Origin: Octopus sinensis
Lineage: Eukaryota
Length of the DNA stretch: 64,000 nucleotides
Direction: 5' to 3'
NCBI RefSeq assembly: GCF_006345805.1
Contig: NC_043018.1
Span: 23,684,001 to 23,748,000, forward strand
The number at the start of each line of letters is the position of its first letter. Positions within the stretch are counted from its first letter, which is position 1. The position numbers and the translations under genes are program-made. Below, in pieces: positions 9,336 to 55,859 of the stretch. The notes beneath the pieces are model-generated. The model searched no databases. It was given only the letters and a program-made list of their open reading frames with translations, and was not told where the DNA came from.

Positions 9336-12300
9336 GCATACAAGTGATACTTGTTTTCTGCCTTCCGTACTTGGAAACGAGTAAGGATCAGTGACAGGAA
9401 AGGCATCCAACCACAGATAATCTGTCTCAACAAATTCCATCTGAGCCATTCAAACATGGAAAAGTGGACGTTAAATCAATAATGTTCAAATACACAATGA
9501 AATGCTTACAGTCGTTTTGAACTTAAAACCTCCAAGTTGGGAGTCCACCACTATATCCACACAGCCATTTCACCTCAACGACCAAAGATTGAGATAAGAT
9601 ATGATTCAAGAACACTATCTTATTTCTTTATTGCCCACAAGGGGCCAAACATAGAGGGGACAAACAAGGACAGACAAAGGGATTAAGTCAATAACATCAA
9701 CCCCAGTGCATAAGTGGTACTTCATTTATCAACTCCGAAAAGATGAAAGGCAAAGTCGACCTCGGCGGAATTTGAACTCAGAACATAAAGACAGACGAAA
9801 TACCGCTAAGCATTTCGCCCGGTGTGCTAATGTTTCTGCCAGCTCGCCGCCTTCAAGAACACTATCTGACACCAGTACATCTGTGGTATGTATTTTATCA
9901 ACTTCAGGAACATGAAAGCTAAAGTTGACTTTGATAGCATTTGAACTCATGATGTGAAGGGAAGCAACTAAATACCCAAGATGTTTTATCTGTTGCTCCA
10001 TAATCTACCAAACTCTGATAGCATGTAGCTTAGTGGTTACGGTATTCAGCTCATGATCGTGAGGCCGTGAGTTCAATTCCCTGTGGCGCACTGTGTCCCT
10101 GAGCAAGTCACTTTATTTCACATTTAATTCACTAAATTTAGTTCATTCAGCTGATAAAATTGAGTGGTCCCTGTATTTCAAAGGAACAGCCTTGTCACAT
10201 TCTTTGCCACCCTAAATCTCCCTGAGAATTACACTAACCCTTTCATTAACAACCCGGCTGAAACTGGCACTGAGTACAAATGTTCTGTTTTCATAAGTTC
10301 TGAATTAAAATCTTCCACCAAACCTTAGTCACAATTTATGTTCCTAACATTAGCTGAATGATAAGTCATTTTACTAAATTCTTTGTTATATTTAAAATAA
10401 TTGAAAAAAACATAGAACATCTCAAAATAAATACAGTAACGAAAGGCTTAAGATTATACATGTCTATGGAGTACTCAGTCACTTGTGCATTAATTTCATG
10501 AGCAGGGGCTGTTCTGTTGGTCAGACCAACCAGAACCCTCATTGTCGTAACTGATGGAGTGCCAATTCAATTTACCAAAAGACAATTCTGCAGATGAAAA
10601 GAAGGAAGAAAGTCCATAAGAAAAGAAAATCTTACATCGCTTTCTAAATTGGATTCCTTGTCATCTAGAAAGTCTGTGACGTAAATGTTACGAGTTTGTG
10701 ATGTTGCAGATTGCTCATTTAGGTAAATCATGGTCCACTTCCAGAAATAATCCATTGCTTTCTTTAGGCGTTCAGTCTCAGCGGCCACAGCTTCTTCTTG
10801 AGCTGAAATGTTGAAATATTTATCACAAAGACATCATATATACACGAGGGTGTGCCGAAAAGTTCCTGGCTTTTGAGTAAAAGAAAGTACAGGAGGATCG
10901 GTTAATTATGATTTTATTCAACATATTCTCCTCTCAGATTCCACACACTTATAGCAGCAGTCTTTCAGTTTTTCTAAGCGTTGTAAAAAAACTCAGAAGG
11001 TTAGGCTTACAACCAGGCCAGGAACTTTTCACCACCTCCTCATGTATGCATGTATATATGTATATATATATATATGTATGTATATATATATATATATATA
11101 TATCGTAAGGTGTATTAGCCATCTGAATGTGGCTAGCCACTGGGGGGGGGGGGGGTACTGATGCTTTTAGCCCCAGGCGATCAATGTCACCAGAAGGACT
11201 TTAGACACTATCTCAGTGCCCTTGTGTTATTTGCAAAGGGAGGTCATCCTCCCTCGAAGACCCGAGTACTACATACGGACTATAGTTTCAAGGTAATTGC
11301 CTCTCGTCAACGCATATATCAGGTTGAGTAAAATGCAAGCAACATTTTGAACCATGGAGAATTAGGGGTGCATTTTTGCAGAGTTTTGAATTTTTTTTTT
11401 AAACATTTTTTTGAAATTGTCTGATAATACAGACACAGACTTGCCCAAATGCATCAATAAATTAACATTGATGTTTTTTTCACCGTTGTTACAATCATCT
11501 GAAATGGAAGGACATAAAGCAGCTGAAACTGCTCATGACATCAACAAAACGTTTGGTGAGGAAATGACCAGTGAGTGGTCAGCTTGAAAATGGTTTAAAC
11601 GATTTCACAGTGGAGACCTGAGCTTCGAAGATCGTGAGAATAGTGGACGCCCATCTGTCATTGATGACGGTCAATTAAAGACCGTCATTGAGAAAGATCT
11701 GCATAAAACCACTCAAGAACTGGGAAAGAACTTCAAGTTAGCCAGAAAACTGCCTGCAACCATTTGCATGTGATCGCAAAATTAAAAAATCTCAACAAAT
11801 GGGTACCACACGATTTGAATGAAAATCAGAAAATGCACGGGTATGAAATTTGCCTATTGCTTCTTCTCCATAACCAGACTGATCCAGTTCTCGACCATAT
11901 TGTAACTTGTGATGAAAAGTGGATTCCATACCTTAATAAAAAAACTTTATATACGACAGGTTGCTTTCAGTCACTGTCTACCAAATCTGTTAATAAAGTT
12001 TTGGTCAGTCTGGGGTATAGGAGAATGCACTTGTCCAAGGCACTATGAGGTGTGACTGAATCCAAGACCACATGGTTTGGAAGCAAAATTCTTAATTACA
12101 CAGCTATGCCTACACCTGTACCTACACACACACACACACACACACTCAGGTGTGTGGGTATGTATATATATTTATGCTTTTATCTCTAAGCAATTATATT
12201 TTTATACTGTCCAATCCTGTTTATTTACTTTGTGCAGGGTTTAGTACCAGGTAGGCTATGGCACACAAGGGACCCACTAAGGTGTTTCTGATGGACTGTG

Positions 12301-14669
12301 AACCCTCCCTAAAATTTTTCAAATATATTGCATTTGTGGGACAGTGAAGTTGGTGGTTTTTAGATAGGCTTTTGTGCCATGATTTATTCAACCCTTCAGC
12401 ACAAAGATTACTCTGTCAAATGAAATATTTATTTATTCACATTGTTTTGACTCAATCATGCAATCTGGGACACCACAGTCTGCGACTATTTTGCACCCCT
12501 CCATATGCTGGATACTGCAGTAAATGGGAGGGTCATGAGGCTATAGTAGAAGATGCTTGCCCAAGGTGCTACACAGTGAGATTGAACTCAGAAGCATGTG
12601 GTTGGGAAGCAAGCTTCTTTCCACAGAACAAAACCCTGTTGTATCAGGACCTGTCAGTGAACTATCTCTTCCAGCCTGTGGCGCTTGAGACATTTGGAGG
12701 GGCTGGGCCACTAACAGTGAAGTTCTTGTCATCATTGGCTGCTGGACTTACTGAGGTGTTAGGTGATGCCTGTGAGGGTGACTGGCCTTTCCAATGCCTC
12801 ACCATTACCCATAGTAATGCAGTGGGCATGTTGGCTTGCTTCAGTAGGTTCCAATGAACTGTGTGGTATGCAACTAATTGAGGCACTTAGTGTAACACTG
12901 ATGTTTTTTCTCTTTCTCCTTTTTGTTTCCTTTCATAAAATATATTTCTTTTCGCTGAATTATTGCAAATTGTAACAATTGTTTAGTACCTCCCAACACA
13001 ATAGTAAGCCCGTCAGATGTCGCCGAAAGAAAAACAGTAGAGTGTTGCTAAAAAAAAAATTATGCATTAACTCAAAGCTTTGAGACTTCAATGATATGAT
13101 TATTTATTTTTAGAATGACATTGTAGAATAAGTATAAGAGGTAGGATCTGGCTGGTTTCAACATAAAATGAGTAGACTATTTGTGTCTGGTGGTTAGTTA
13201 ACTGCAGAAAGGTTAATCTTAGCATACATAAGCATTGCCTGATACAGAAATGTTAGGGGAAGAATATGAAAGGATATTTTTATAGATAAGATATGATATA
13301 CATGCTGGGCCAAGAACAAATGTAAAAAAAGACTCAAATGTAGGTCATTCCAGTAGTTTGTATTTACCAATTAATCTTGAGTCTTTAGGTATGAGGTTGT
13401 CCTTGTTTATCACCTCAACGGCCAAACCAGTATAATGGATAGAACCAAACTTCACAACAACATCAATCAGGATATCAATATCAGCTAAAAGTATTGGTAA
13501 ACTGGGTTCATAGAATCCGCTAATAACAGCATAATAGTTAGGACCGAATTCTGGTTCATCATCTGTGCAGAGAAACAAACAATCTGTATAATTAGTCAGA
13601 AAATATTGTAGAGAAGAAAATTCTGTGATTAAATAACTAAATGGCAGGATTGGTAAAACACCAGACAAAATAATGGAATTAATTGGTAGAGCCGAGAAGA
13701 AAATGATTCTTCTGCCATGACACTGCATCCTTTAAGGCCCTCATGCTTTCCGAAATCCGTCGAAACTACACCTGATTATATATGCACTTTAGATGAGTTG
13801 TAGTGCACCTGAGCACTGTACACAATGTTTATTATTATTATTATTATATTATTATTAATTGAATCATTTTGTCCCCTTCTCTGTTGATTATTAATTTATT
13901 CAATGGAACATACAAGTAAGGCATAATCCTGGCCCCCAGCTGAGAGGGGCAATAATTCTCAATAAGGTTGACGATTTGTGATAACTAGGCCATCTCATGC
14001 CAACTTGCAAAACAGGCATAAAATTGATGATGAGAAAGATGCAGCTGCTGTTGCTGATGATGATGATGATAAAGCCACTACCAACCCTGCTACGACCAAT
14101 GATGATGTTGACAGAGAAAATTAGATGTCAATTAATTAAGCAATATGATTTTTATAAGAAAAATAGGAGCAGGAGTGGCTGTGTGGCACCTTGGGCAAGT
14201 GTCTTCTACTATAGCTTCAGGTCAACCAAAGACTTGAGTGGATTTGGTAGACAGAAATGGAAAGAAGTCCATCGTGTGTGTGTGTGTGTGTGTACTTGTG
14301 TTTGTCCCCCTAACAGCGCTCGAGAATCGATGTTTGCATGTTTACGTCCCCGTAACTTAGCAGTTCAGCAAAAGAGACCGATAGAATAAGTACTAGGCTT
14401 ACAAAGAATAAGTCCTGGGGTAGATTTGTTCGACTAAAGGTGGTGCTCCAGCATGGCCACAGTCAAATGAGTGAAACAAATGAAAGAATAAAAGAATACA
14501 AATATAGGCGCAGGAGTGGCGGTGTGGTAAGTAGCTTGCTAACCATCCACATGGTTCTGGGTTCAGTCCCACTGCGTGGCACTTTGGGCAAGTGTCTTCT
14601 ACTATAGCCTCGGGCAGACCAAAGCCTTGTGAGTGGATTTGGTAGACGGAAACTGAAAGAAGCCTGTCG

Positions 14670-14712
<43 letters not shown>

Positions 14713-15636: not shown

Positions 15637-15676
<40 letters not shown>

Positions 15677-16122
15677 TGTGGTGGGGTTTACAAGTAAATG
15701 TGTGCAAGTGCATAAATGTGCAAATGTGCATGTGTGCATAGCTGCATGGACATAAGCAAGCATGTGTGTATATATATATATATATATATAATATTAATTA
15801 GAGACAAAACCACTATTTTGCAAAACAAACAAGGAAAGACTTAATCAATACATAAAATTTTAATAAAAAGTAAAAAAAAACCGCCACTACAATTGTTTCA
15901 TGTCTTGAACGACAATCTTCAGGTGGATTTCCGATTTTCAAGTCAGTTTCAAATTTTTACTTTTTATTAAAATTTTATGTATTGATTAAGTCTTTCCTTG
16001 TTTGTTTTGCAAAATAGTGGTTTTGTCTCTAATTAATATTATATAATATTTTACTATAAAATTGGATTTAATCCTAAATCTGATTTTTTCCCTGTAAATT
16101 TGGATTTATTCCTAATATTTAT

Positions 16123-16156
<34 letters not shown>

Positions 16157-19100
16157 ATAATAAAACAATACTGGGAGGATAAGAAACGGAACGAAGCGAC
16201 GAATCGAAACGAACCCGACGCGAAGCGCTGTCAGACAATAGTGTAATAAATAAAATATATGCATACATACAAACGTATATGTACGTACCTACATCTACAT
16301 GTATATATACTGTTGAGTTCTACATCTTTTTGTGGTGTCCTGTACGTATTTTTTTTTTTTTTTACTTGTTTCAGTCATTTGACTGTGGCCATGCTGGAGC
16401 ACCGCCTTTAGTCGAGCAACTCGACCCCGGGACTTATTCTTTTGTAAGCCCAGTACTTATTCTATCGGTCTCTTTTGCCGATATATTTATATATGCATGT
16501 ATATATACATGTAGATGTAGGTACGTACATATATGTTTGTATGTATGCATATATTTTATTTATTACACTATATATATATCATCATCATTTAACGTCCGCT
16601 TTCCATGCTAGCATGGGTTGGACGGTTTGACTGTGGGCTGGCGAACCAGATGGCTGCACCAGGCTCCAGTCTAGATCTGGCATATATATATCTATATATA
16701 TACATGTGTGTATGTGTGTGTGTGTGTGTTTATGTGCAAATGCATGGACATCTATGCATTTCTATGTATGTGTGCATATTTATGCGTGTGTGTGTGCATT
16801 TCCATATATTTGTGTGTGAGTGTGGATATGTATCTCTACACAAGTGTGTGTGTGTGTGTGAATGTGTGAGTGTGAACATGTGTATGTGTGTGTGTGTGTG
16901 TGTGTTGTGAATGTGTCTCTATGCAAGTGTGTGTGAGTGTGAGAATGTGTCTACGTAAGTGTGTGTGAGTGTATGTATGATCATATGTCTATGTATGTGT
17001 GTGCGTGTGTGTGTGTGTAGAAAATAAAGAATGTCAGGAGTTATGTGATGAATATATTTATTTCACCAATTGATATCCATAGGATATATTGGGCATATGT
17101 TGGTGTGTGTGTGTGGGTGTGTGTGCACGCATCTACATATGTGTGTGTGTGTGTGTGCACGCATCTACATATGCGTGTGTGTGTGTGCACGCATCTACAT
17201 ATGCGTGTGTGTGTGCACGCATCTACGTGTGTGTGTGTGTGGTGTGTGTGTGTGTCATCATCATTTAACATCCATCTTCCATGCACGCATGGGAAGGACA
17301 GGGTATCCCTGTTTCCTTCCCATCATGCTCTTGTCCTTTCCTTCTCACCCCTTCTGGTCCTTCTGATGCTGTTGTTCCTTTTATTTATTTTTTTTTTTTT
17401 ACCTCTTTTATCCCTTTTCTGGGTCACCTATCCAAATCTACATACACACATTTACTAATTACTCACTACACCTGCATTTCTGCCCCAATCTCTACCTGGA
17501 GACAGTGAAGTTTGATGCCTGCTCAATGGACTTCCAGGACTCTTGTCCACTGACTTATTCATAATAGTTTCTAATTCAGGTGCAAGGGTAGAGACAGCCA
17601 GTGCCATCTACCCTACTACTTCACTAGTACTTTATTTTATTGACCCCCAGAAGAACGAAACGTAAAGTTGACTTTAGTGGGATTTGAACTCAGAACATGA
17701 AGAATTCAAAGAAATATCGCAAGATATTTTTTTCCTGACACTTTAATGGCCCTGACAACTTGCCATCCTTTTTCGTCTAAATAACAGTAATAATCCTTTC
17801 TACTAAAGGAACAAGGCCTGAAATTTTGGGGGAGGGGACCAGTCAATTACATTGAACCCAGTGTTTCACTAGTTCTTATTTTATCAACCCAGAAGGATAA
17901 AAGGCAGAATCGACCTCGGCAGAATTTGAACTCAGATCGTGAAGACAGACGAAATGCTAGTAAGCATTTTGTCCAGTGTGCTAACAATTCTGCCAGCTCA
18001 CCATCTTAATAATCATAATATTTCTTCCTTCTTATTTTGGTACAAGGCTAGTCAATTTTAGAGGGGTGAAGTGGATTGCATTGACCCCAGTACATGCCTG
18101 GTACTATGCTTTATTGATCCTGAAAGGATGAAAGGCAAAGTCAGCCTCAACAACAACTGAATGAAGAACATTAAGCCAAAAGAAATACTGGTAAGAATTT
18201 TGTCCAGCAAGCTAACAAGACCACAAATTTTGGGACAAGGTTCAATCAAAATGATTCGACCCCAGTATTTTATTGGTATTTATTTTCTTGAAACTAAAAG
18301 AATAAAGGACCAAGTCAGCTACAGCAGAGTTCAAACACACACATCACATACATACACAGAGGGAGAGCGGGGTGCATATGCGTATGTGTACAAGCTTGTG
18401 CATGTTAGTTGCATATAAGGTAAACAGGATATGTTAATGTTTGAGAATGGACGGAAGCTCATAAGGATAATAAACAACAACAATGTTAATCCTTTCTCTG
18501 AATAATTAGATTCCCAAAACACATACAAAAAGCTATAAATTTTTGCTTGCTTTGCTTTGCTTCATGCTCTTGTTTGATGGGGTTGGGGGGTCATCCCAGG
18601 TTAGTGGTCCCGGAGACGTCATCATGCAGAGAACTGACCAGGTCCACCAGTGCTCTCCGTCGCTAGCAGTCCCATGCCAACCCTTCTGCAACCTCCAAGG
18701 TGATGTCAAGCCTCTGGAGATCTTCCCCCAGTCACATCCAGCCATCTGGTGTGGGGCCTACTTCAAGGCCTCTTGCAGCCCACAGCTGCTGCATCAAAAG
18801 AGACTAAAACCCTGGTAGGTTGACCTAGTGGGAGATGGAGGACACGTCTGCACCAGCGCATGCGATGGACAGCTACGAGGTGGGAGGCTGCAGGCTGATG
18901 CATGCGCATACAGTTCTTTGTTGGAAACATGATGGTACCATCTGATGCTCTTGATGGTTCTCAGGGCTCTGCTATTGAGGCTGCCGATCCTCTTTTCCAG
19001 GGTCTTCAAGAGGGGCCACATTTCTGCTCCATAGATAGCTTTTATTTATAGCTTTATGTGTGCCACAAGAATCCACTATTTCAAAAAAGAATTATTTTGC

Positions 19101-23252: not shown

Positions 23253-23288
<36 letters not shown>

Positions 23289-27541: not shown

Positions 27542-27580
<39 letters not shown>

Positions 27581-28006
27581 GCAGAAGCAACAGGGCTAGT
27601 TTGATAAATGCTAACACAAATGGAACAAGAGACGGACTGTTGAACGACGTGAAAGGTTACAAGGGAACAATTCAAAGGGTGACAGACAAAATGCAAAAAT
27701 ACAAAATTTAAGAAGTTGTGCACAATAAACTGTAAGCTGAAAAAAAGGGAAGATGGTAAAAGAAATAAGCAGTCGTTTCAGGTGAACCCTTTATCAAATA
27801 GTGAGAAAAGAAGCAAGAAAAATATATAAAACTGCGCGTGTGTATGAATTCGTGTTTCTCAAAGAATATAATATAATATACACAGAACGAGGAAAAAAAT
27901 AACCGAAACAGGATAAACAAACCTCATGCAGCTGTTCCCTAGCAAGACTTTGTTCCCATTTCGCTGTAGCGTGTCCATTAGCATACTTTCCTATTTTCTT
28001 AGACAT
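701..28006 (-). CDS. SPAG17: Sperm-associated antigen 17 (PF6 homologue, axonemal central-pair protein), 5' part; 11 exons, 565 codons in window, presumably continues left of position 1
   Basis: Hand-spliced GT-AG exons with matching phases: 27923-28006, 22638-22778, 19242-19430, 15407-15575, 13368-13562, 10636-10802, 7877-8024, 6696-6847, 4338-4475, 818-1082, 701-747. Peptides are collinear with vertebrate SPAG17 as I recall it (KWEQSL; LLAKLIKFKLL; LKKRSEE..YIDDEPEFG; TTLDMRYY..VPLILHAMIEQVVA; DGLNQDLAKHL; EFLHFC). Confidence 0.9.
818..1082 (-). CDS. SPAG17: SPAG17 exon 10 (VIDDKLEEKEVPKEEPLRLISYQD...EFLHFCSKDGTSHK)
   Basis: Acceptor ggttatag, donor A|GTGAGT, phase 0 to 1. Confidence 0.82.
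1180..1399. mobile_element. piggyBac-like MITE (TTAA target)
   Basis: TTAA|CCCTTTC...GAAAGGG|TTAA; related elements at 6308-6615, about 10238-10448, 21408-21610, 39519-39729. Confidence 0.8.
1950..2190 (-). mobile_element. RTE-clade LINE 3' end
   Basis: C-terminal zinc finger CLHCDRSFQARIGLIGHLRTHQ*, short 3' UTR and (CAT)n tail. Confidence 0.75.
2211..2605 (+). mobile_element. Non-autonomous Helitron
   Basis: A|TC start, CCCGAGCAACACCGGG hairpin, CTAG|T end; relatives at 26255-26553(-) and about 56493-56830(+). Confidence 0.8.
2640..3010 (-). mobile_element. RTE LINE reverse-transcriptase C-terminal fragment
   Basis: RVRAGWRRF..LFNRTVMPAMLYICESWSL..QRAMERS. Confidence 0.8.
3972..4264 (-). 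mobile_element. Solo LTR (Gypsy-like)
   Basis: GC-rich 293-bp island with TG...CA ends (minus strand TGTGGGA...CACTACA), ATAAT on both sides. Confidence 0.65.
4338..4475 (-). CDS. SPAG17: SPAG17 exon 9 (VVAIERRILPPREYQPPPTFDGLNQDLAKHL...)
   Basis: Acceptor atttattag, donor GAG|GTGAGT, 138 nt. Confidence 0.88.
4941..5349 (+). mobile_element. tRNA-derived CORE-type SINE, family A (octopus OR-like), full length
   Basis: A/B-box head GGCG.AGGAGTGG..GGTTCAGTCC, CCTTGGGCAAGT core, internal (TA)(TG) tract, CCAGCATGGCCGCAGTC tail. Further copies near 3371-3780(-), 5401-5756(-), 8890-9230(-), 32160-32500(+), 37932-38260(+), 40485-40890(-). Confidence 0.88.
6696..6847 (-). CDS. SPAG17: SPAG17 exon 8 (...TTLDMRYYDDLMDTIPMECVTVPLILHAMIEQ)
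   Basis: Acceptor ttttattag, donor CAG|GTTTGT, phase 1 to 0; strongly conserved motif. Confidence 0.9.
7877..8024 (-). CDS. SPAG17: SPAG17 exon 7 (CAKLYEKFAFTLYGIVEKQRMYRNFIRNTKIIAVPTI...)
   Basis: Acceptor ccttttccag, donor A|GTGAGT, phase 0 to 1. Confidence 0.86.
8231..8495. repeat. 17-bp G-rich minisatellite, about 15 copies
   Basis: (ACAACATGAGGGGAGGG)n. Confidence 0.92.
9619..9853 (-). mobile_element. SINE family B (Nin/Deu-domain-like), full length
   Basis: GGCGGCGAGCTGGCAGAA head, GAGTTCAAATTCC B box, GCCGAGGTCGACTTTGCCTTTCATC domain; dozens of copies, e.g. 38810-39040(+), 23705-23925(-), 17795-18005(-). Confidence 0.82.
10636..10802 (-). CDS. SPAG17: SPAG17 exon 6 (QEEAVAAETERLKKAMDYFWKW...)
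   Basis: Acceptor catttcag, donor GAT|GTAAGA, phase 1 to 0. Confidence 0.86.
10843..11044. mobile_element. Mariner-type MITE
   Basis: TIRs CACGAGGGTGTGCCGAAAAGTTCCTGGC / GCCAGGAACTTTTC..CCTCATG, TA flanks. Confidence 0.75.
11271..11317 (-). ncRNA. Minimal hammerhead ribozyme motif, U3 core variant
   Basis: ATATGCG-TTGACGA-GAGG CAATTA CCTT-GAA-ACTATAGT-C^CGTATGT: 7-bp helix I, 4-bp helix II, palindromic helix III. Confidence 0.65.
11318..11945 (+). mobile_element. Decayed mariner transposon (5' TIR and transposase remnant)
   Basis: GHKAAETAHDIN..KWFKRFHSGD..SGRPS..KWVPHDL..IVTCDEKW with stops and a frameshift. Confidence 0.85.
12640..12860 (+). mobile_element. CRE/NeSL-like non-LTR element C-terminal fragment
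   Basis: YLFQPVALETFGGAGPLTVKFL..SNA, typical of the region after a restriction-like endonuclease. Confidence 0.6.
13368..13562 (-). CDS. SPAG17: SPAG17 exon 5 (DDEPEFGPNYYAVISGFYEP...)
   Basis: Acceptor ctgcacag, donor G|GTAAAT, 195 nt, phase 1 to 1. Confidence 0.88.
14165..15393 (+). mobile_element. Three head-to-tail family A SINEs
   Basis: Heads at about 14165, 14507 and 14978; the first two share an identical variant tail, suggesting local duplication. Confidence 0.85.
15407..15575 (-). CDS. SPAG17: SPAG17 exon 4 (RKASLQTVDLKK...LKKRSEEIYDYKYI)
   Basis: Acceptor gttgttcag (an in-frame CAG 18 nt downstream is an alternative), donor G|GTAAAT, phase 0 to 1. Confidence 0.82.
15884..15926 (-). 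ncRNA. Minimal type I hammerhead ribozyme motif (Penelope/retrozyme type)
   Basis: CCAC-CTGAAGA-TTGTC GTTCAA GACAT-GAA-ACAATTGT-A^GTGG: intact core, helix I CCAC/GTGG, palindromic helix III, GUA cleavage triplet. Confidence 0.75.
18545..19035 (-). mobile_element. RTE LINE 3' fragment
   Basis: YGAEMWPLLKTLEKRI..RALRTIKSIRWYHHVSNKELY. Confidence 0.75.
19242..19430 (-). CDS. SPAG17: SPAG17 exon 3 (VNVYGNPKGRGKDAPQYVEVCEACKAFIDSKEPIPSELLAKLIKFKLL...)
   Basis: Acceptor ttttctag, donor AAA|GTAGGT, 189 nt; absent from the ORF track. Confidence 0.88.
20496..20907. mobile_element. MITE with ~30-bp TIRs and 8-bp TSD (possibly Merlin-like)
   Basis: GGATCTTTTCAGTTTGAACGGCAGTTTTTT / AAAAAACTGCCGTTCAAACCAAAATGATTC, perfect TSD CAAGATTT. 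Confidence 0.8.
20965..21305 (+). mobile_element. tRNA-derived SINE family C
   Basis: GGCGCGTGGCTCAGTGGTTAGAGC..TCGAATCCC head then GTGTTCTTGAGCAAGGCACTT; relatives at about 10020, 22020, 43393, 54858. Confidence 0.8.
22638..22778 (-). CDS. SPAG17: SPAG17 exon 2 (SSWKVFIALIAEDKPED...SLYKE)
   Basis: Acceptor tttcttacag, donor GAG|GTCAGT, 141 nt. Confidence 0.88.
23290..23560 (+). mobile_element. Second R4/Dong 3' fragment after a (TAA)n tract
   Basis: LWSMKRVYIMPIIVGSLG, homologous to 60082-60300. Confidence 0.75.
24015..24330 (+). mobile_element. Helentron/HINE-like non-autonomous element
   Basis: GTTTGTTTGTGTGTCTGT..GATTTGGATGAAACTT..CCTTGGTGGAGGTTTGTGCTCT architecture. Confidence 0.55.
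25000..25390 (-). mobile_element. RTE-clade LINE 3' end with tandem zinc fingers
   Basis: TCNVCARPCLSKAGLMSHLRCH..HICRACGRK. Confidence 0.7.
25677..26216 (+). mobile_element. Internally deleted Tc1/mariner element
   Basis: TA|CAGGGTGCAGTGAATAAATTGTCGTCTAA TIRs; remnant ETNKTPCNTKDELRARI. Confidence 0.78.
26255..26553 (-). mobile_element. Non-autonomous Helitron
   Basis: Reverse copy of the same TC...CCGAGCAACGCCGGGCGATACTGCTAG termini. Confidence 0.8.
26724..27396. mobile_element. Long-TIR (~90 bp) foldback MITE; a related copy lies at about 28161-28884
   Basis: CATAACTGCCAGAAAAATGGATACTTTTTAACGAAATTTTCAACAAA and its reverse complement at 27309-27356. Confidence 0.7.
27923..28006 (-). CDS. 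SPAG17: SPAG17 coding exon 1 (MSKKIGKYANGHATAKWEQSLAREQLHE)
   Basis: ATG at 28006, donor GAG|GTTTGT, 84 nt, phase 0. Confidence 0.85.
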
Positions 28007-28073
28007 TGTGTCACCCTGAGGTTGGCGAAGTTATAAAGTTCTGTCTCTCAATTCATGACCACACAACGCTGCC

Positions 28074-28086
28074 GTTACTAGGAAAC
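28074..28086. promoter_or_regulatory. RFX X-box upstream of SPAG17
   Basis: GTTACTAGGAAAC 68 bp upstream of the ATG of a motile-cilia gene. Confidence 0.6.
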
Positions 28087-29995: not shown

Positions 29996-30035
29996 GTTTA
30001 CGAAGGGAGATAACTCTTATATTACTTCTTTGAAC

Positions 30036-31157
30036 ATGGCGGCTACGGTATTGAGAAACCTGGTCCGGGTCAGTGTTATTCCCAATTACTCGATAATCAG
30101 ACATTCTTGTTCACGTTTATTCTCTAGTAATGCACGAACATCGTTTGCTGTCATTTACGAACAGAATGGAGATCCTAAAACGGTATTGAAAAGTAAGGAG
30201 CATCCATTGCCCTCTAAAATCAAGGACAACGAAATTTTGGTGAAAATGTTGATGTCACCTATTAACCCAGCGGACATCAATATGATTGAAGGAACGTACA
30301 TGATAAAGCCACCACTTCCTGCTATCGCTGGAAATGAAGGTGTCGGTGAGGTGGTGGAAACCGGTGATAACGTTAAAAAGTTTAAACCTGGAGACTGGAT
30401 CCTCCCTCTGAAAACAGGTTCTGGTACATGGCAAACACATGCAGTCTACAGTGAATCCGACGTACAGAAGATCCCGAACGACATCCCGCCCTTAGTAGCA
30501 GCTACCATCGCTGTTAATCCTTGTACTGCTTATAGAATGATGAAAGATTTCGTCAAACTTGAACCTGGCGACGTGATTATTCAAAATGGTGCTAACAGTG
30601 GAGTTGGTCAAGCTGTTATTCAGTTGGCTTCCGCATGGGGGCTTCGGACCGTCAACATAGTTCGAACGAGACCTGACATCGATGCACTAACTGCGGACCT
30701 GAAATCACAAGGTGCTACCCATGTTGTCACTGAGGAATTCTGTCGTACCCCTGATATGAAAACTTTGATTAAGGATCTTGGCAAAGCACCGAAATTGGGC
30801 TTTAACTGCGTTGGCGGAAAAGCGGCCACCGAACTACTTCGAAACCTCGCCCCTAACGGTTACATGGTTACCTATGGAGGTATGTCTAAACAACCAGTTA
30901 CTGTTCCTACTGGGGTGTTTATTTTTAAATCCTTAAAGCTGGTTGGTTTTTGGATGAGCCAGTGGAATACTGACAATTTCAACACACCCCAGAAAACCGA
31001 AATGATGCTAGACCTTTGTCATCTGGCACGCCAGTCTAAACTATTAGCGCCAATTTCTGACCTGGTTCCTATCACATCCTTTGATAAAGCAATTGCTGAG
31101 GCACTCAGGGGATTTAGCAAGAAACAAATTCTGGTTATGGATAAAACTTTATTGTGA
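30036..31157 (+). CDS. MECR: Mitochondrial trans-2-enoyl-CoA/ACP reductase (MDR superfamily), intronless, 373 aa
   Basis: Uninterrupted ORF from aacATGG. R/S/L-rich acid-free N-terminal transit peptide; SPINPADINMIEGTY (catalytic Tyr), GNEGVGEV, ATIAVNPCTAYRMMKDF, QNGANSGVGQAVIQ (NADPH loop), NCVGGK, MVTYGGMSKQP, GFWMSQW. Confidence 0.96.
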   Translation: MAATVLRNLVRVSVIPNYSIIRHSCSRLFSSNARTSFAVIYEQNGDPKTVLKSKEHPLPSKIKDNEILVKMLMSPINPADINMIEGTYMIKPPLPAIAGNEGVGEVVETGDNVKKFKPGDWILPLKTGSGTWQTHAVYSESDVQKIPNDIPPLVAATIAVNPCTAYRMMKDFVKLEPGDVIIQNGANSGVGQAVIQLASAWGLRTVNIVRTRPDIDALTADLKSQGATHVVTEEFCRTPDMKTLIKDLGKAPKLGFNCVGGKAATELLRNLAPNGYMVTYGGMSKQPVTVPTGVFIFKSLKLVGFWMSQWNTDNFNTPQKTEMMLDLCHLARQSKLLAPISDLVPITSFDKAIAEALRGFSKKQILVMDKTLL

Positions 31158-32498: not shown

Positions 32499-32536
<38 letters not shown>

Positions 32537-33318: not shown

Positions 33319-33837
33319 CATATCTGTAGAACTATTCCAACTTTTGATATGAATGATAAAAGACAAGCAATTAACCTAGAAATAGAACAATTTTATTATT
33401 CCTCAATCTCATACAGCATTTGGTTACCAACTTGATTCTGAAAGATACAAATTTTTTTCCTTATTTATTTATTTATTAATATTATTATTTGTAACATTAG
33501 CATTATTCTTTTATTACATTAATATATATATATATATAATTAGTGAATGGAAGAAATGGAGCTGAACGAAGATTCTTCCATTCACTAATTATATTAAACT
33601 TCAATTATCCGCGCCAACGCATGGTTGCAACACCCTATGGTCATAACTCCAACCGTGTTTTTTCTGCTGTGATTTTTGCTACCCAGGTATCGGTTAAACT
33701 TTTGAATAATCCGTAACAAGATAATTCATCTTTCCATTTCAACAAATATATATATATATATATATACCGGAGTAAACACATAAATGTGAAACAAGGTGGA
33801 AAAAAGAGTACTCAAATACCAGTGGTAGAGTAATATG

Positions 33838-33995
33838 CTTTATTTAAAGCAGCAGAAAATTCAACAAAATCTGTTACTCTGAGTTTCTCGTTGCCGTTCA
33901 TCAGACAGTTTTTGCTAGCAAAAACTGTCTGATGAACGGCAACGAGAAACTCAGAGTAACAGATTTTGTTGAATTTTCTGCTGCTTTAAATAAAG
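33838..33995. repeat. Perfect 158-bp palindrome
   Basis: 79-nt arms, no spacer, centre GCT|AGC at 33916/33917. Confidence 0.95.
33921..33967 (+). ncRNA. Minimal type I hammerhead ribozyme motif (mirror copy on minus strand at 33866-33912)
   Basis: AAAACTGT-CTGATGA-ACG GCAA CGA-GAA-ACTCAGAGT-A^ACAGATTTT; helix II is short and opens with an A.A mismatch. Confidence 0.7.
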
Positions 33996-34113
33996 TATAT
34001 ATATATATATAAAGTTAATCCAAACAAGAAAACAAAAACAAAAAAACAACAACGCAAGGACGTGGAACAAATAAAGTATTATTGGATACTCAGGAAAGAA
34101 GGGAAGAAGGAGG

Positions 34114-34213: not shown

Positions 34214-34281
<68 letters not shown>

Positions 34282-34283
34282 CA

Positions 34284-34429: not shown

Positions 34430-34469
<40 letters not shown>

Positions 34470-40704: not shown

Positions 40705-40749
<45 letters not shown>

Positions 40750-43032: not shown

Positions 43033-43063
<31 letters not shown>

Positions 43064-46000
43064 TGTGTATGTAATCATTATTCAGTGTCCGTTTTCCATG
43101 CTGGCATGGGTTGGACAGTTTGACAGCAGCTGGCAAGCTGGAAGACAGTACCAAGCTCTATCTTCTTTGGCATGGTTTCTATAGCTGGATACCCTTCCTA
43201 ATGTCAATTACATTACAGAGTGTACAGGGTGCTTTGTTTATGTAGCACCAGCAAGGTCACAAAGTAAACTTGCAAGATGAAAACCCTTCAACTGAAGCGG
43301 AGGTAGCTTTTGTGCCAGGTGATGAGAGATTGGAATATAATAGAGGGACAGTATCAGATGTCTTACAGTGAAGGAGGTACATGGGCTATAGTGGAGGCAC
43401 ATGGCCTAGTGGTTAGAGCAGCGGACTCGCGGTTGAAGGATCGCGAGTTTGAATCTCAGACAGGGCGATGTGTGTGTTATGAGTGAAACACCTTAGCTCC
43501 ATGCGGCTCTGGCAGAAGGTAATGGTAAACTTCTGCTGACTCTTTCGCCACAACTTTCTCTCACTCTTTTCTCCTGCATCTTGCTGCTCACCTGTGACGG
43601 ACCGGCGTCCCGTCCAGGTGGGAAACCGGCCCTTATGAGCCACGCCTGGCTCGAGAAGGAACAAACAACAACAACAACATGGGCTATCCCAGTTAGAATA
43701 AAACAGAGGAGAGAGAAAGAGAGAGGAAACGGTGAAAAAGATGCGCTGGGGCTTGCAAGGAGGTGTACCAGTGCCACCGGCACTGGTATCACAGCTGCAA
43801 TTTCCATTGATGTTGATCGAATCGAAATCGATCAACATCAATGGAAATTGCAGCTGTGATACCAGTGCTGGTGGCATGTAAGAGAACCATCCGAACGTGG
43901 CCATTGCCAGTGCCGCCCTGACTGGCCTCGTGCAAGTGGCACATAAAAAGCACCATCCGTTCATGGCCGTTGCCAGCCTCGCCTGGCCCCCGTGCCGGTG
44001 GCACATAAAAAGCACCATCCGATCGTGGCCGTTTGCCAGCCTCGTCTGGCACCTGTGCCGGTGGCACATAAAAAGCACCCACTACACTCACGGAGTGGTT
44101 GTCGTTAGGAAGGGCATCCAGCCGTAGAAACATTGCCAGATCAGACTGGGCCTGGTGCAGCCTTCTGGCTTCCCAGTTGAACCGTCCAACCCATGCTAGC
44201 ATGGAAAGCGGACGCTAAACGATGATGATGATGATGATGAAATGAAGATAGTAATTAAATCTCTCACCTAATAACAATAGGAATCTCCGTATTCCATGCC
44301 ACTTGACCAGACCGAGACAAAACAAATGAACCGTCAGCATTTTGAATTTTCTCTTTTAAATATATGGATACCTGGAAAGTAAGTAAATGTATAGAATACA
44401 ATATAAGATAATATTATGTGTGTGAATGTGTAAACGCCCATGTGTGCATGCGTGTGTGTGTATGTAGACATGTGTATGTGTGTGTGAGGACGAGGATAGT
44501 GGTCACTTACCCTGACGTGAATATCTTGGAAGAAACTTAACGCCGTCTGACGCAAAAGCTGAAATTCACCATCTGATAACTCAGAATACATCTGTATACA
44601 GAATCAAAAGTCAGAATTCAGGGAAAAGCATTTCAGCAAATTTTCTTTTATACCAAAAAAAAAAAAAAATGGTGGGTACAGAAAAAATTCCTGATACCAT
44701 GAACATTACATCCATTGTATAGCATTCGCTATTTTCAAGTGTCCATGAGATTGCTAAAGGTCAGTGGGGGACACACACACACACACATACAAAATATACC
44801 ATGTAAGTTTATCATCACAATCATCATCATCATCGTCATCATCATCCTCATTATCATCATCATCGTCGTCGTCGTCATCATCTTCATCATCATTTAACGC
44901 TCCTGTTCCATGCTGGCATGGGTTAGATGGTTTTACAGGATCTGATGTATCCAAGGACTGCATCGTACTCCAGTGTCTGCTTTGACATGGATTCTATGGC
45001 TTGATGCCCTTCCTAATGTCAACTACTTTACAGCATGTACTGGATACTTTTCTTTCTTTCATGGTACCAACACAAATGAGGTCAACATGCAGCACACAAG
45101 ACTGTGAAATGTGAAGTGGGGTGAGGTAGGCTTTATGCTCGGAGATGAGAGGTTAAAGTATGAGAGAAGTATGAGGGAGCAGATCAGGGTCTTAGGGTCA
45201 AGAAGCTAACATAACTACTGACAGAAGAGAAGACGAGAATGATCCGTAGGAGCTGCAACGAGATAATTAGGGGTGATGAGGTGTTCAGTTGGCCCCTCAA
45301 GGTCTTCTTTGGAGCAGCTGAGGAAGAGTGTTCCCACTGCCTGGATTGTCTCTTTGTCTCTGGCTCAAAGTGATGAACCCAACACTCATCTTGAATTTGC
45401 CTCAAACAATGTCAGATTTTCCTATGATATAATCACTTAATGCAGTGCTTCTCAAACTATCTGATGCGGTGTACCAGCAGTTTTTTCCCCAATGTGCCAG
45501 GGACCGGTAATATTTCTTAGTAATATTAATTTATACCAGAAAAAATAAATATAATCTCTATATATATAAACGGCAAAATGTCTGTGTGTGTGTCCTTTAT
45601 ACAAATCCACAATTTTTCAGTTAGCAGACTCGCACTTTCTATGGTCATTCAAAACCGTCCAAGGGTGGTCGTGCACATCTTTACATTTCCCCAGTCACCA
45701 CGCAAAGCCATTAAAAAAATCAATAGAAGTGACTTTTTTGTGAATTTTCTATCCAAAACCCAATCAAAATGCCTGAAAATTGATATGCCAATTGAATTCC
45801 AGCTAGCTGTATGTGATTGGTCAGAGATTTGGACAGTACTCGCATGTATGTGTGCACATACACAGCAACGCCGGGTCATAGTGCTAGTGAATATAATAAA
45901 AGTTGACAATTTTTAAAATCTTATACTTATTTTGTAAACAAATAATACAATATTACCTAAACATTTTATAATGTTTCTTTCTTTTCTGGAAACGTGCCAC

Positions 46001-47004: not shown

Positions 47005-47051
<47 letters not shown>

Positions 47052-49133: not shown

Positions 49134-49205
<72 letters not shown>

Positions 49206-52200
49206 GTATATATATGTGTTTGTCCCCCCAACATCGCTTGACAACCGATGTCGGTATGTTTACGTCCCCGTTACTTAGCGGTTCAGCAAAAGAGACCGAT
49301 AGAATAAGTACTAGGCTTACAAAGAATAAGTCCTAGGGTCGATTTGCTCGACTAAAAGGCGGTGCTCCAGCATGGCAGCAGTTAAATTACTGAAACAAGT
49401 AAAAGAGTAAAGAGTAAGAGTAAATGTGCCAGACTACTTCTGGGTTAACTTTTTTGGTGGCACAAAAAGTTCAAGGATGGCAGAGAGGAAGTGAGAGAAG
49501 ATGAAAAGTGAGGGAGGGAGGGAGAAGGATGTCAGAACATCAGAGCTGGCTGAGATAAGGAATATTGCTGTCCTAGAATGGATGATGTTACTGTCATTTA
49601 GCCCCAGGAAACATTGTTTCCAGCTGGCTATACAACACAATATCTGTGTCCTTATATTTTTGAACAGGGGCTTCAGCACTCCGATCCAGCACAAGACAAC
49701 ACCCGTGGACTGGTTTCTGGGTTATTGCTCTTTATCAACGCAGGATAGCTGCTTGGCTGGGTGGCACTGCTGAACTCACAATTTGAATATAGTTTTCAAA
49801 GTGACACACAATCACTGATTTAATAAAATAGAAATACTATTATTTCTAAAATTCACACTTTTCTCGATGAAGACTGGCACAGTGATGAATTTAGCATACA
49901 GACGACTGTTGTTATCACTAGGCCTAACTCATCGTAAAGTCAATACCACCATGACTGATATCCAATCTACCGTGGAGAAGGCTAGCCACTGGATTTGGTT
50001 AAAAAGAAACAATGAGGATATTGAGTTTAACTTCATAACCAGCTGATCTAGCAAGTGGGGCCTCATATTAGTGAGGGGGCCAGTGCGCATTGATGCCGTC
50101 GAGAGGTAGGCCCCAAAACGGCGCGCATTCTCTCCTGATGACCCCATACACTTGCTGGCTTCTGGTATATGGAGCTTTTGACTGGTAGCACTTGCATCTG
50201 CAAGTCGTTTGCAAGACATCACCAAGGCTCAGTCTTCAGCCCCCTCCTATTCATCATTGTCCTCTAGGCCATAACAGATACTGGGCCACACAGAAAGAAT
50301 AAATTTTTTAATTTCATTTGTATTTTATTGACTATCACAGTCTGCAGAGTGTTTTTTGCATTATATGTAATAATTGAATTATATATTATGCCCTTCATTG
50401 TGTTGTGGTATTCATGGAAAGACTGTCTTGCATGAAACTGTCCATGGAGCAAAAAATGTTGTGGGTCACTGGCCTACATGCTTTAGGTTACTTATTTCTT
50501 TATTGCCCACAAGGGGTTAAACACAGAGGGGACAAACAAGGACAGACAAAGGGATTAAGTCGATTACATCGACTCCTGTGCGTAATTGGTACTTAATTTA
50601 TCGACCCCGAAAAGATGAAAGGCAAAGTCAACCTCGGCGGAATTTGAACTCAGAACGAAACGGCAGACGAAATACCTATTTCTTTACTATCCACAAGGGG
50701 CTAAACACAGAGAGGACAAACAAGAACAGACAAACGGATTAAGTCAATTATATCGACCCCAGTGCCTAACTGGTACTTAATTTATCGACCCCGAAAAGAT
50801 GAAAGGCAAAGTCAACCTCGGCGGAATTTGAACTCAGAACGAAACGGCAGACGAAATACCTATTTCTTTACTATCCACAAGGGGCTAAACACAGAGAGGA
50901 CAAACAAGAACAGACAAACGGATTAAGTCAATATATCGACCCCAGTGCCTAACTGGTACTTAATTTATCGACCCCGAAAAGATGAAGGCAAAGTCAACCT
51001 CGGCGGAATTTGAACTCAGAACGAAACGGCAGACGAAATACCTATTTCTTTACTATCCACAAGGGGCTAAACACAGAGAGGACAAACAAGAACAGACAAA
51101 CGGATTAAGTCAATTATATCGACCCCAGTGCCTAACTGGTACTAATTTATCGACCCCGAAAAGATGAAAGGCAAAGTCAACCTCGGCGGAATTTGAACTC
51201 AGAACGAAACGGCAGACGAAATACCTATTTCTTTACTACCCACAAGGGGCTAAACACAGAGAGGACAAACAAGAACAGACAAACGGATTAAGTCAATTAT
51301 ATCGACCCCAGTGCGTAACTGGTACTTATTTAATTGACCCCAAAAGAATGAAAGGCAAAGTCAACCTCGGCGGAATTTGAACTCAGAACGTAGCGGCAGA
51401 CAAAATACTGCTAAGCATTTCGCCCGGCGTGCTAACGTTTCTGCCAGCTTCCACTTTTAGGTTACTGTGTACAAGGTTACATGCTTTAGGTTACTGTGTA
51501 CAAGGATCCCAACCTACTGCTCATACTATAAAATGGTTTGCTAAGGATCAAAGAAAGTGTAGTGTTGTGAGGTCCTTCTAGTCCTGTCTCACCAAGGATT
51601 ACTCAATCTCTGCCTTGTTTTGATGCCAAATGTACTCAGTAGGCGCAGGAGTGGCTGTGTGGTAAGTAGCTTGCTTGCCAACCACATGGTTCCAGGTTCA
51701 GTCTCACTGCGTGGCACTTCGGGCAAGTGTCTTCTCCTATAGCCTCGGGCCGACCAAAGCCTTGTGAGTGGATTTGGTAGACGGAAACTGAAAGAAGCCT
51801 GTTGTGTATATGTATATATATATATTTGTGTGTCTGTGTTTGTCCCCCCAACATCGCTTGACAACCGATGCTGGTGTGTTCATATCCCCGTAACTTAGCG
51901 GTTCGGCAAAAGAGACCGCTAGAATAAGTACTAGGCTTACAAAGAATAAGCCCTGGGGTCAATTTGCTCGACTAAAAATGGCGGTGCTCCAGCATGGCCG
52001 TAGTCAAATGACTGAAACAAGTAAAAGAGTAAAGAGAGAGTAGAGTCTGTTAAAAGGTTGATGGTAGGAAGAGCATCCAGTTGTAGAAACGAAGTGACAC
52101 AAATTCATTCACAAGGTTTAGTGGCAAACCTGAGACTAAGACCCTTGCCTAAGGTGTCACTTGGAGACTGGACCTAGAATCATGCGGTTGCAAAGTGGAC

Positions 52201-52822: not shown

Positions 52823-52931
52823 TGTTTTGCCTCTTCTCTAATCCTCTGGACTTACAGTTTTTTTTTGTCTTCGACAAGTTTTTAAACTTTTTCCTAGCGC
52901 TCTCTCTCTCTCTCTATCTATCTGTCTATAG

Positions 52932-52963
<32 letters not shown>

Positions 52964-52998
52964 CTATAGCTCTCTCTATCTATCTATCTATCTCTAGT

Positions 52999-53032
<34 letters not shown>

Positions 53033-53269
53033 TCCGATATATAGATATATATGTACGTATGTATTATATTTATGTATATGTAGTTTGCGTGTATTTGTTT
53101 GTGTGTACGTGTTCTGTTAGTAAACTAAGTTTCTCTTTGCTAAAGTGTTGGCCTGTTGCAACAGACAACTAAGAATGAAATGTCTTCCAAATTCCGAACA
53201 ACTTCGTTATGTTTGTCAATATTGTGTTTTTGCCTTCTTTTTAAAGTTCAGAGAGAAGCTTCCTCACGC

Positions 53270-53282
53270 TTTGCCTAGCAAC
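53270..53282. promoter_or_regulatory. RFX X-box-like site upstream of OSCP1
   Basis: TTTGCCTAGCAAC (reverse complement GTTGCTAGGCAAA); further GTTGC half-sites at 53155 and 53294. Confidence 0.5.
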
Positions 53283-54147
53283 TGGGACAAACTGTTGCTA
53301 AACGGTCGTCACACGAATGTAGCTCTGACCACTGTTACACGGGTCCTCATGTGGATTACACGCCTCTACGTGGTCACAGAATGTGCTAGAAATAGCAGCT
53401 AAGCCACTCCTAAATCCCTACATTTATAAAAAAAAGGAAGTTCTCGATACACCTAAAAAAAACGGATAGCCATGGCGGGAACGTCTTTGATCACACTCCA
53501 GAGTCTACGTGGAACTAAACAGAACTACAGTGGGATTGTCTCACCTGCGTGGTTTTTTGACCTGCTAGAAATAGAAGCCTAATCTCCCTCAAACCACAAT
53601 CTTTGAAGAAACACATTTAATGATGTAGTCCGAGATACCCAATGACGAGAAAACTTGCGGCGTGTGTGTCTTTGATGGATCTTGTTTTATCATCGTCCTT
53701 CAAAAATGTTTATACATTAGAGGAATGTTCGAACACGACATTCTTACTGTGACCATCACGTCTTCCGATCAGGTTGAATTTGGACAACAGTAGCAATAGT
53801 AAAACAAATACGTATAACTACACATACATGTAGTGCGTGTGCGTGCGTTTGTGTGTGTGTGTGTGTGCGGTTCTCTGTCATGAACACAGACACTATGAAC
53901 AGTTCCGTTCACATTGAGAAGTTGGGTGCAGTTTTATTCTTGGATTACATTGTTTATAATAGGTTTTTCTTTAATAGCATCCAGGGAAACTGTTTCCATG
54001 GGAGCCTGTACGTGACTGTATTTGTGATTAATGTGTGGGTGTGTGTGTGTGTGTATTGATCAGCTCTGGTTCATGATAAATACAAAACAGTACTCAACGA
54101 TATGACAATAGTAAGGATGCATAATACAATTTAACGATAATAGCTTT

Positions 54148-54717
54148 CTAACAAATGCTGCTACATGACTCCGAGTTTCGTGTAAGATTCATAGGCATTT
54201 TTTTTTTCATCTGGCTTGTTCTGAGAACAACTTTCTCCCTTATATCTGAGATCTTAAAAAGGGCCGTGGGTGTTGACTGTGAGTATATAGTGACGCCGTC
54301 CATTCTGGAATTATTTTCTGTCGGTGATACAACCTGGTTAAAGCACCTTCGCATCTCACTTCTTCTACACACATTCCCATTATCATCATTTAACGTCTGT
54401 TTTTCTATGCTGGCATGGATGAGACGGTTTTATAGGATCTGGCAAGCTGCAGGGCTGCATTGAGCTCCAATGTCATCTGTGGTATTATTTCTACAGCAGG
54501 ATGCCTTCTTAACACCAACCACTTTACAGTGTGTACTGGGCGCTTTTTTTTTTTTAAGCAAACGACACTAGTGAGGTCGTCAAGTCATTTACAAGACATG
54601 AAAATAACAGGTAAAAGGTAAAACCTGGCCACACTATCTCAATAGACTTACCTGCTGTTGTGATGATGCTTGTCAATTGCTGCTGATATTAAAACAGGAG
54701 AAAATGTTTCTATATTT
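54148..54717 (-). other. Two candidate terminal exons (54652-54717, 54148-54364) of an unidentified gene
   Basis: Strong CAG|GTAAGT donor, phase-2 join into a 72-codon open frame, AATAAA about 210 nt past the stop. Confidence 0.3.
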
Positions 54718-55859
54718 CTGAATTAAATTTTTATATATTTCATATAAACAATCACTTGTACAAGTTTTACAAGCACCAATCTAGAACAGAAAACATAACT
54801 AAAGTGAGACATTGTTAGTATAATCCTTCAGAATTGAGATTACGCTGTCAAAAAGTGTGAAGGCACATGGCTCAGTGGTTAGAGCATCAGGCGCACAATC
54901 ATGAGGTAGTGAGTTCGATTCCTGGACTGGGTTGTGTGTTGTATTCTTGAGCAAGACACTTTATTTCACGTTGCTTCAGTTCACTCAGCTGTAGGAATGA
55001 GCTGCAATGCCACTGGTACCAAGCTGGTGAGGAGAGGAGAGTCTGGTATGCATTGGCAACTGCTGGTCTTCCATAAACAACCTTGCCTGGACCAGGCTAT
55101 GTTGTGTTCTTGAGCAAGACACTTTATTTTCATGCTGCTCCAGTCCATTCAGCTGCAGAAACAAGATACATCACTGGTGCCAAGCTGTATCAGCCCCTTT
55201 GCCTTTCCCTTGGATAACATCGGTGGCGTGGAGAGCGGAGACTGGTATGCATGTGCAACTACTGGTCTTCCGAGGTGCAAATCCCATGGTCATTGTGACC
55301 AAAGAGAGTCTTTAAAAAATATTTTTATCATGCCAAACCATTAATCCCTACACATTTTTTTCTCTCTCCATTTTTTTTGCTTGTCAATCCTTTCTGTCAA
55401 AGAGAGTAGGCTCAAAACATCAAAGACTTTTCCATTCTTCCTAAACTAATACACCTGCTTGCTGTTCTTTCACCTGTCATTTGTTTTCTGTAAATTTGAA
55501 CTACACACACACACACACACACCTTACCTTACTATGCCTTTAAACTGTGCATATCTAACCCAGACGTTCTACCTGTTTTATATACAAACTTGTCAGGTCT
55601 GGCCTCTTATACCTACCCTACAATGTCATTCTAAAAATAAACAGCCACATCATCAAATTCTCAAAGCCACAAGATAATCCATGATTAACTCAAACCAACG
55701 TGAGCTAATAAGCATTACATTTGACAGAGTAATCAGAAAGTTTAAGGATTAAAGGGTTTAACTGAACAAAAGGACCCCAGTACTTTCTTTTGAAGTCTGA
55801 TACTTATTCTATGAATCTTCTTTTGCTGAACTGCTAAGTTAAAAGGATGTAAATATACC

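Follow-up and report, generated by a model that had tools for sequence, protein, structure and literature searches.

Hammerhead motifs of type I have been described in Penelope-like elements (PLEs) and in small non-coding retrozymes, and both are the closest known counterparts of seven motif-bearing sites in the DNA analysed here, a window of 64,000 nt of the Octopus sinensis genome (contig NC_043018.1, positions 23,684,001 to 23,748,000). The PMC and bioRxiv papers cited below are drawn on mostly in excerpt. As described there, Hydra PLEs possess a C-terminal GIY-YIG domain, the motifs RWK and DKT, a CxCX5C linker and a 3' hammerhead with near-palindromic helix III, insert into (TA)n, occur with inverted truncated arms and a tail, and are generally, though not strictly, shorter than 3 kb (Craig et al. 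2021, PMC8557442). In Neptune and Nematis PLEs, helix I is short, A9 is followed by an unpaired base, and helix III is minimal and palindromic (ACGT); they have a CX2-5CxxC linker and a Cys/His-bearing GIY-YIG, and their motifs are mostly single ones from truncated copies, as here (Cervera & de la Pena 2014, PMC4209133). Retrozymes of the non-LTR type (LTR, long terminal repeat), described in mussels and proposed as PLE derivatives, are head-to-tail non-coding units of 150-450 bp with one type I hammerhead each, which form monomers and dimers and co-occur with PLEs (PMC7229834; bioRxiv 10.64898/2026.07.22.740005). Cephalopods have not been left out: the supplement of Craig et al. 2021 (PMC8557442) tabulates a hammerhead for the (TA)n-targeting Hydra-1_Obim of Octopus bimaculoides, and for giant squid a total of 235 hammerhead-1 matches is on record (PMC6962438). 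The words octopus and cephalopod are absent from the main text of PMC7229834. An earlier sequence-only reading of the window, which knew of no cephalopod description, was mistaken on this point. Since Hydra-1_Obim is already listed, the octopus elements are new members of an already described type, and what they add lies in family-wide core variants and spliced mini-copies.

The sites belong to repeat families, for which we coined the letters A, B, C, D, F, G and H. Families A, B, D and G are linked to open reading frames (ORFs) for a reverse transcriptase (RT) and/or a GIY-YIG endonuclease, copies are inserted in (TA)n, and inverted arms occur. With a probability of about 90%, we consider the sites to be scattered copies of these families, four of them PLE 3' ends and two from a non-coding lineage that likely borrows a PLE enzyme, each with a hammerhead-shaped motif predicted to self-cleave. 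The features in the window are the following (L numbers denote fetched genomic loci; pLTR, pseudo-LTR):

33770..33918, minus strand: family A, inverted 5'-truncated 3' end of a Hydra-type PLE with the tail of ~70 nt kept, 97.3% to the pLTR of full-length copy L031; hammerhead (descriptor match) with core start at 33904 and predicted cleavage after 33875
33915..33996, plus strand: family A, direct copy, short 3' end in (TA)n, second arm of the same fold-back; core CTGATGA at 33929-33935, predicted cleavage after 33958
15790..15957, minus strand: family B, a second Hydra-type PLE, short spliced retrocopy with an exon of ~20 nt, exon junction 15936/15935 and its end in (TA)n; hammerhead (descriptor match) with core from 15922 and predicted cleavage after 15888
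15954..16159, plus strand: family B, inverted arm with the sequence 3' of the hammerhead and the tail, hammerhead absent; 95.3% over 212 nt to long copy L127
34014..34217, minus strand: family D, a Neptune-like PLE represented by its 3' end, with (TA)n on either side, 93.2% to L112; hammerhead (descriptor match) with core CCGACGA (C4) from 34144 and predicted cleavage after 34118
11104..11315, minus strand: family C, partial unit of a head-to-tail non-coding repeat of ~355 bp, truncated at helix I, 97.6% to the unit of dimer L134; hammerhead core TTGACGA from 11310, predicted cleavage after 11278
49561..49850, minus strand: family F, worn copy of an older relative of C; core TTGATAA (U3-A8) from 49738, 76-82% to four fetched copies
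27624..27822, minus strand: family H, old repeat; core TTGATAA from 27797, 70% over 207 nt to L226
55347..55491, plus strand: family G, a second Neptune-like PLE whose 3' end is present in decayed form (72-83% to six fetched copies); hammerhead-shaped motif at 55390-55427 with T at core position 6

When the window was scanned with a descriptor of the type I hammerhead that calls for a short or palindromic helix III, such folds emerged at four loci, just where the sequence-only reading had placed four well-formed motifs. Two of them (A and B) are indeed canonical, while those at 11.3 and 34.1 kb carry U3 for C3 and C4 for U4, both family-wide. The exact CUGANGA core gave 3 matches in the window and none in 30 of 30 block-wise dinucleotide shuffles; with one core mismatch allowed, 5 matches at the four loci compare with a shuffle mean of 0.1 and a maximum of 1 (30 shuffles), although this control favours the claim, since the descriptor had been relaxed after a stricter version. 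That first version returned no hammerhead match in the window, and none of the 99 matches of an Rfam scan of the window (E<=5) belonged to a hammerhead family, as one would expect if the motifs were chance matches in AT-rich repeat DNA. However, the stronger and decisive proof of their reality is copy number. Pattern matches across the 2.72-Gb genome amount to 2705 for A (exact 30-mer), 1300 for B, 217 for C, 429 for D, 48 for F, 15,089 for G (family pattern) and 3 for H, so that all seven sites have relatives elsewhere, and reversed-pattern controls stayed at 0 for A, B, C and D. Copies were counted by patterns; a DNA search with 79 bases of A yielded zero candidates despite the abundance of its copies. 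Moreover, the family A motif has nearly the layout of the published Hydra-2_aMil hammerhead (ctgt CUGAUGA ... GAA ACTC a GAGT A acag; PMC8557442). We deem chance refuted by the copy counts together with the place of each motif at a PLE 3' end, and it retains practically no probability. Enrichment over shuffled sequence and multicopy families were thus both found.

The coding capacity of families A and B points to the Hydra clade. In L031, two same-strand family A motifs lie 3345 bp apart with an ORF between them, and L033 contains a stop-to-stop frame of 723 aa. The family A ORF exhibits LRWK, SDKT and YRDD, a CxCx5C linker (CNCKSESSC), a C-terminal VVY..YTG, and a late CxxC (CKLC) and CxH (CRH). 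It has 1812 homologues at E<=1e-20, and a profile of 27 sequences matched a retron RT in the PDB weakly (E 0.022). For family B, two ORFs (859 and 641 aa; L165, L171) were reached by way of an endonuclease fragment in L128, and they contain IKWK, SDKT, YRDD and CxCx5C; the linker reads CTCRDKSNC, and the late motifs are CYLC and, in five other B-type copies, CRH. This ORF is linked to the motif in L165, L166, L171 and L172, the last with a unit of 5626 bp, whereas the ORF-bearing loci L167-L170 showed no family B pattern within the stretch fetched. Both families have a single ORF with YRDD and a C-terminal VVY..Y[TI]G, both have changed DKG to DKT (SDKTR), and by reading neither has a Cys inside the GIY-YIG span, i.e. 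CCHH is absent. Judged by these protein motifs, A and B would be Hydra-clade PLEs. Compared to the published members (PMC8557442, in part), the units of 3345 bp (A) and 5626 bp (B) exceed the usual length, and B deviates by IKWK in place of the RWK that A retains, by an Asn-rich insert and by a 1.84-kb intron with spliced retrocopies. Likeness to Hydra-1_Obim was assessed by eye; its hammerhead differs from those of A and B. The insert of family B, a long Asn/Lys-rich low-complexity segment between RT and linker (L165:5488-8064, minus strand), varies in length among copies. A third Hydra-like ORF, a fragment of 418 aa at L036:6131-7384 (minus strand), shares ~43% identity with family A along part of the fragment.

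At 33.9 kb, an inverted truncated arm with a tail is joined to a direct arm without one, which is the arrangement given in the legend of Fig. 2 of PMC8557442; helix III of the direct copy is ACTCAGAGT. The 5' ends of 30 family A copies lie between 0 and >1200 nt upstream of the motif (13 of the 30 within 20 nt; some of the 30 loci are both arms of a single insertion), a spread as expected of truncation. Upstream sequence common among copies reaches 3138 nt in A, 1871 nt in B and 1019 nt in D. These data bear on the view, in line with the sequence-only reading, that all short elements are dedicated non-autonomous retrozymes spreading as small circular RNAs. Most A, B and D copies are short, and the short spliced B copies resemble mini-elements with a defined 5' end, as this view would have it. 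Families A, B, D and G, however, reach by variable lengths into ORF-bearing elements, and the spread of family A 5' ends is what truncation predicts. We regard the retrozyme-only view as refuted for A and D and, taken for all elements, as very improbable, even though family C, with its tandem unit of 357 nt, long helix I and no linked ORF, fits it well. The term non-autonomous fails for four of the seven sites, where longer elements with an RT/GIY-YIG ORF are represented by short or 5'-truncated copies, and it stands for the 11.3-kb family and probably for that at 49.7 kb.

In family B, a spliced RNA intermediate is directly evident from the DNA. The body of the long copies is rich in AT/TG; these copies show ...TTTTAG followed by ATTGGAAGT immediately ahead of helix I, and carry a GTAAGT donor ~1840 nt upstream of the motif, which together delimit an intron of 1.84 kb. 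In L165 and L171, the distance from the end of the ORF is 1676-1727 nt to this donor and ~3.5 kb to the motif. In 13 of 31 copies, all short and including the one in the window, the donor-side exon is joined straight to the acceptor at helix I with an exact junction; a stricter classing of 30 copies gave 10 spliced, 14 intron-type and 6 unclassed. Where the donor T is changed, a GTATGT donor 4 nt further on takes its place, and the 4 extra bases are found in 4 of the 13 spliced copies, again including the window copy. On the upstream side of the donor, similarity in the 13 copies covers at most 23 nt and in 9 of them breaks off at 16-23 nt, from which we infer a transcription start ~20 nt upstream of the donor. 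A similar organisation is described for Penelope of Drosophila virilis, in which the intron ends next to helix I, an internal promoter lies near the intron, and the sequence preceding the hammerhead depends on whether the RNA is spliced (PMC4209133, PMC8557442, both in part); family B differs by its 1.84-kb intron and by DNA copies of both forms being common. Between the arms of five inverted B pairs and one inverted D pair, a search for ORFs found a single endonuclease fragment only.

In family A, an AG follows a pyrimidine-rich stretch 10 nt before the core (window 33915-33918; L031), and many fold-back junctions of this family coincide with the palindromic CTAG at the same place (window 33915-33918; L031). 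This AG may serve as a 3' splice site, in the manner of family B, but a donor was not found for it in family A. A spliced form of family A was looked for and not established; L010 differs at the AG next to helix I, and a donor to match was not found.

Families D and G appear Neptune-like, with Nematis as the alternative. In D, the end of a GIY-YIG ORF, a CA-rich untranslated region (UTR) and the motif are continuous (L144, L186, L188), and the ORF end shows CSRSRCNTC, LIYCIKCNLC..YIG and two later His; its Pfam GIY-YIG match (E 0.0013) is below the cutoff. Family G has the same continuity of ORF, UTR and motif in 2 of 10 loci (L217, L220), with CRTC and IIYCISCSLC..YIG in L217, a broken copy in which the first linker Cys was not seen. 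The window copy is too worn for the pattern of its own family and was assigned by its 72-83% similarity. Helix I, unpaired base and helix III resemble the Neptune/Nematis type, as the linker and the GIY-YIG of D apparently do, while family-wide C4 (D) and U6 (G) differ from what PMC4209133 describes in the part consulted, which gives U3-A8 as a Schistosoma core variant. A further PLE-like endonuclease family with a CxxxxCxxC linker, ~25% identical to that of family D, is represented by L128:3-557 (plus strand) and L190:339-947 (minus strand); fragments of this kind lie near several C and F copies.

Family C and its older relative F look like non-LTR retrozymes. The family C monomer measures 357 nt between the two motifs of L134, 8 same-strand pairs at 352-360 bp occur among the 100 matches listed, and common upstream sequence in 52 oriented copy records extends to at most 766 nt, never beyond two units. 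No PLE ORF was linked to the family in 33 loci fetched of the 217 matches. In a search with canonical cores for a parent of C, 15 matches were obtained (control, 4). One of the 15 was a 5'-truncated C copy, and a PLE ORF was present in 0 of the 15 loci. Complete units form a long helix I with two segments of 95-99% paired cells (24 of 30 copies aligned, six truncated or gapped copies being left out), whereas the window copy is devoid of the upstream strand of this extension. Families F and C align at 70% over 111 nt; of the 48 family F matches, three are near-identical duplicates and two resemble another family. From the retrozymes described so far (PMC7229834 and bioRxiv 10.64898/2026.07.22.740005, both in part), C and F are set apart by U3·G8 (C) and mostly U3-A8 (F), a PLE-style double 3' end and inversions in (TA)n. 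Contigs from four sequencing runs presumed to be RNA showed neither joints nor pile-ups of ends, a result without bearing on transcription, cleavage or circles. In family H, the U3-A8 core is present in all 3 matches and helix I is weak; the window copy has lost U16.1 and forms a poor helix I. Common flanks in small groups of some further canonical-core matches with the helix III ACTATAGT (L239, L240, L243, L248, L249, L250, L252, L253) suggest more old hammerhead-bearing families beyond A-H.

The affinity to Penelope elements and retrozymes that had been proposed for the window is hence supported by the ORFs linked to the flanks of A, B, D and G and by the tandem unit of C. The elements had also been called unrelated, which is correct in that several distinct families are present and incorrect for those at 11.3 and 49.7 kb. 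The three sites described as decayed are worn, as evident from the copy at 49.7 kb, from the G copy outside its own pattern and from the H copy without U16.1, and all three are members of repeat families as well.

Targeting of TA repeats, likewise predicted from sequence, is evident in the fetched copies: (TA)4 stands just downstream of the motif in 30/30 (A), 30/30 (B), 16/30 (C), 29/30 (D), 14/20 (F) and 9/10 (G), compared to a background of 0.17-0.21. Three families have two fixed 3' ends downstream of the motif, each followed by (TA)n, at ~37/108 nt (A), ~92/178 nt (B) and ~172/218 nt (C), i.e. 45-85 nt apart. Different PLE families also stand side by side in one (TA)n tract, such as A next to D (window 33996-34014; L109) and B-like tails next to D or A (L099; L031:1900-2080), which is expected if each insertion leaves a new TA target. 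In an anole PLE, the tail has been traced to RT initiation at two internal sites, and insertion in vitro was unimpaired when the hammerhead was mutated (PMC11167929, in part). Together with the double 3' ends, these results lead us to infer target-primed reverse transcription at a nicked (TA)n tract. The GIY-YIG domain would nick the tract, where RT would prime and start copying at either of two internal sites downstream of the hammerhead, which would account for the double 3' end and for the tail. Stubs of 80-250 bp would be the product of frequent early termination together with synthesis that folds back. In family B, RNA from the putative promoter ~20 nt upstream of the intron would be spliced, and copying of its 5' end would produce a mini-element; the intron would persist in copies that originate from the far 3' repeat. 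Family C may use the PLE enzyme in trans. PLE hammerhead dimers have reportedly been dealt with by Lünse et al. in 2017. The palindromic helix III could allow two motifs to cleave as a dimer, following PMC4209133 (in part).

Whether cleavage matters can be discussed on the basis of the cores. The consensus CUGANGA-GAAA-NUH with three helices is present in A and B, whereas C (U3 for C3), D (C4 for U4) and G (U6) each show one family-wide departure, and F and H carry the covariant U3-A8. Among the 100 matches listed per family, U3 occurs with G8 in all 100 of C (a separate search found one C copy with C3), C occupies position 4 in 95 of D and T in the other 5, which would fit CpG decay, and T occupies position 6 in 99 of G, in which position 7 takes all four bases. 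Within all 15,089 family G matches, only 177 have A6. The 48 matches of family F divide into 32 U3-A8, 10 U3·G8, 3 C3·A8 and 3 C3-G8. Natural cores with U3-A8, U3 with G8, U4C and A6C are in print; hammerheads with U3-A8 or U4C can retain function, and in Mn2+ good cutting is known from a natural A6C variant, while changes at position 6 strongly lower activity in Mg2+ (PMC3088659, PMC7151607, both in part). A report of an A6U hammerhead was not found in the literature searched, which covers part of the field, and U6 in family G likely weakens or disables cutting.

Conserved helices and GAAA, as well as the invariance of position 6 next to a freely varying position 7 in G, would be in line with the view that the motifs are active ribozymes and that no family, not even those with U6, C4 or U3, can retrotranspose without cleavage. 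Against this stand the Mg2+ data, genomic copies that span the uncut site, the unaffected insertion with catalytic mutants of the anole PLE (PMC11167929, in part) and Xenopus retrozyme dimers, 8 of 9 of which showed no cleavage (bioRxiv 10.64898/2026.07.22.740005, in part), and we consider such a general requirement unlikely. Similarly doubtful is the bolder idea that family G is a working hammerhead with U6, possibly ion-switched like the Mn2+-preferring A6C, which with its sister families (U3·G8, U3-A8, C4) would form a natural active-site mutational series under selection. Insertion can probably do without cleavage, given that copies run across the uncut site and that U6 is found in the largest family.

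Several points weigh against our view of the sites as PLE 3' ends and a dependent non-coding lineage. Pfam gave no match in the A or B ORFs and was mostly blank on homologues too; the clade names rest on protein motifs rather than on a tree with reference PLEs, and for D and G the recovered part is the RT thumb/endonuclease. A parent element for C, F or H was not found among the fetched loci. Between 10 and 30 copies were examined per family (3 for H), nearly all on the first contigs, and since the search patterns set the motif-internal helices, their conservation is partly built in. The covarying helices that had been anticipated are represented in C by one compensatory pair in the extended helix I (21 distinct rows, of which 12 have AU and 8 have GC); pairs changed on both sides were not in excess over shuffles (481 of 500), and pair 18-70 is broken in 10 of the 21 rows.

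Beside the repeats, the window contains an uninterrupted ORF of 374 aa for MECR, the mitochondrial enoyl-ACP reductase, with an intronless coding part (30033-31157, plus strand); the protein is 93% identical to that of Octopus bimaculoides and 82% to that of Argonauta, in agreement with an octopus host. Two near-perfect fold-back palindromes (43782-43866 and 57394-57497) with weak matches to microRNA families in Rfam are probably inversion junctions of repeats. The microRNA-like Rfam matches in the window stem from fold-backs and microsatellites.

The role of hammerhead cleavage in PLE retrotransposition has been called unclear (PMC8557442, in part) and dispensable in vitro (PMC11167929, in part). 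One genome here offers canonical (A, B), covariant (F), wobble (C), C4 (D) and U6 (G) cores, the last being the most numerous, and thereby provides material to test whether cleavage matters for Penelope-like retrotransposition. If U6 is dead, the family would provide evidence from nature that the fold is maintained for a different role or merely carried along; if U6 cuts, the known hammerhead core would widen. The coexistence of spliced B mini-copies with long copies that retain the intron points to a simple way of explaining both intron retention and the many short hammerhead-only copies of PLEs.

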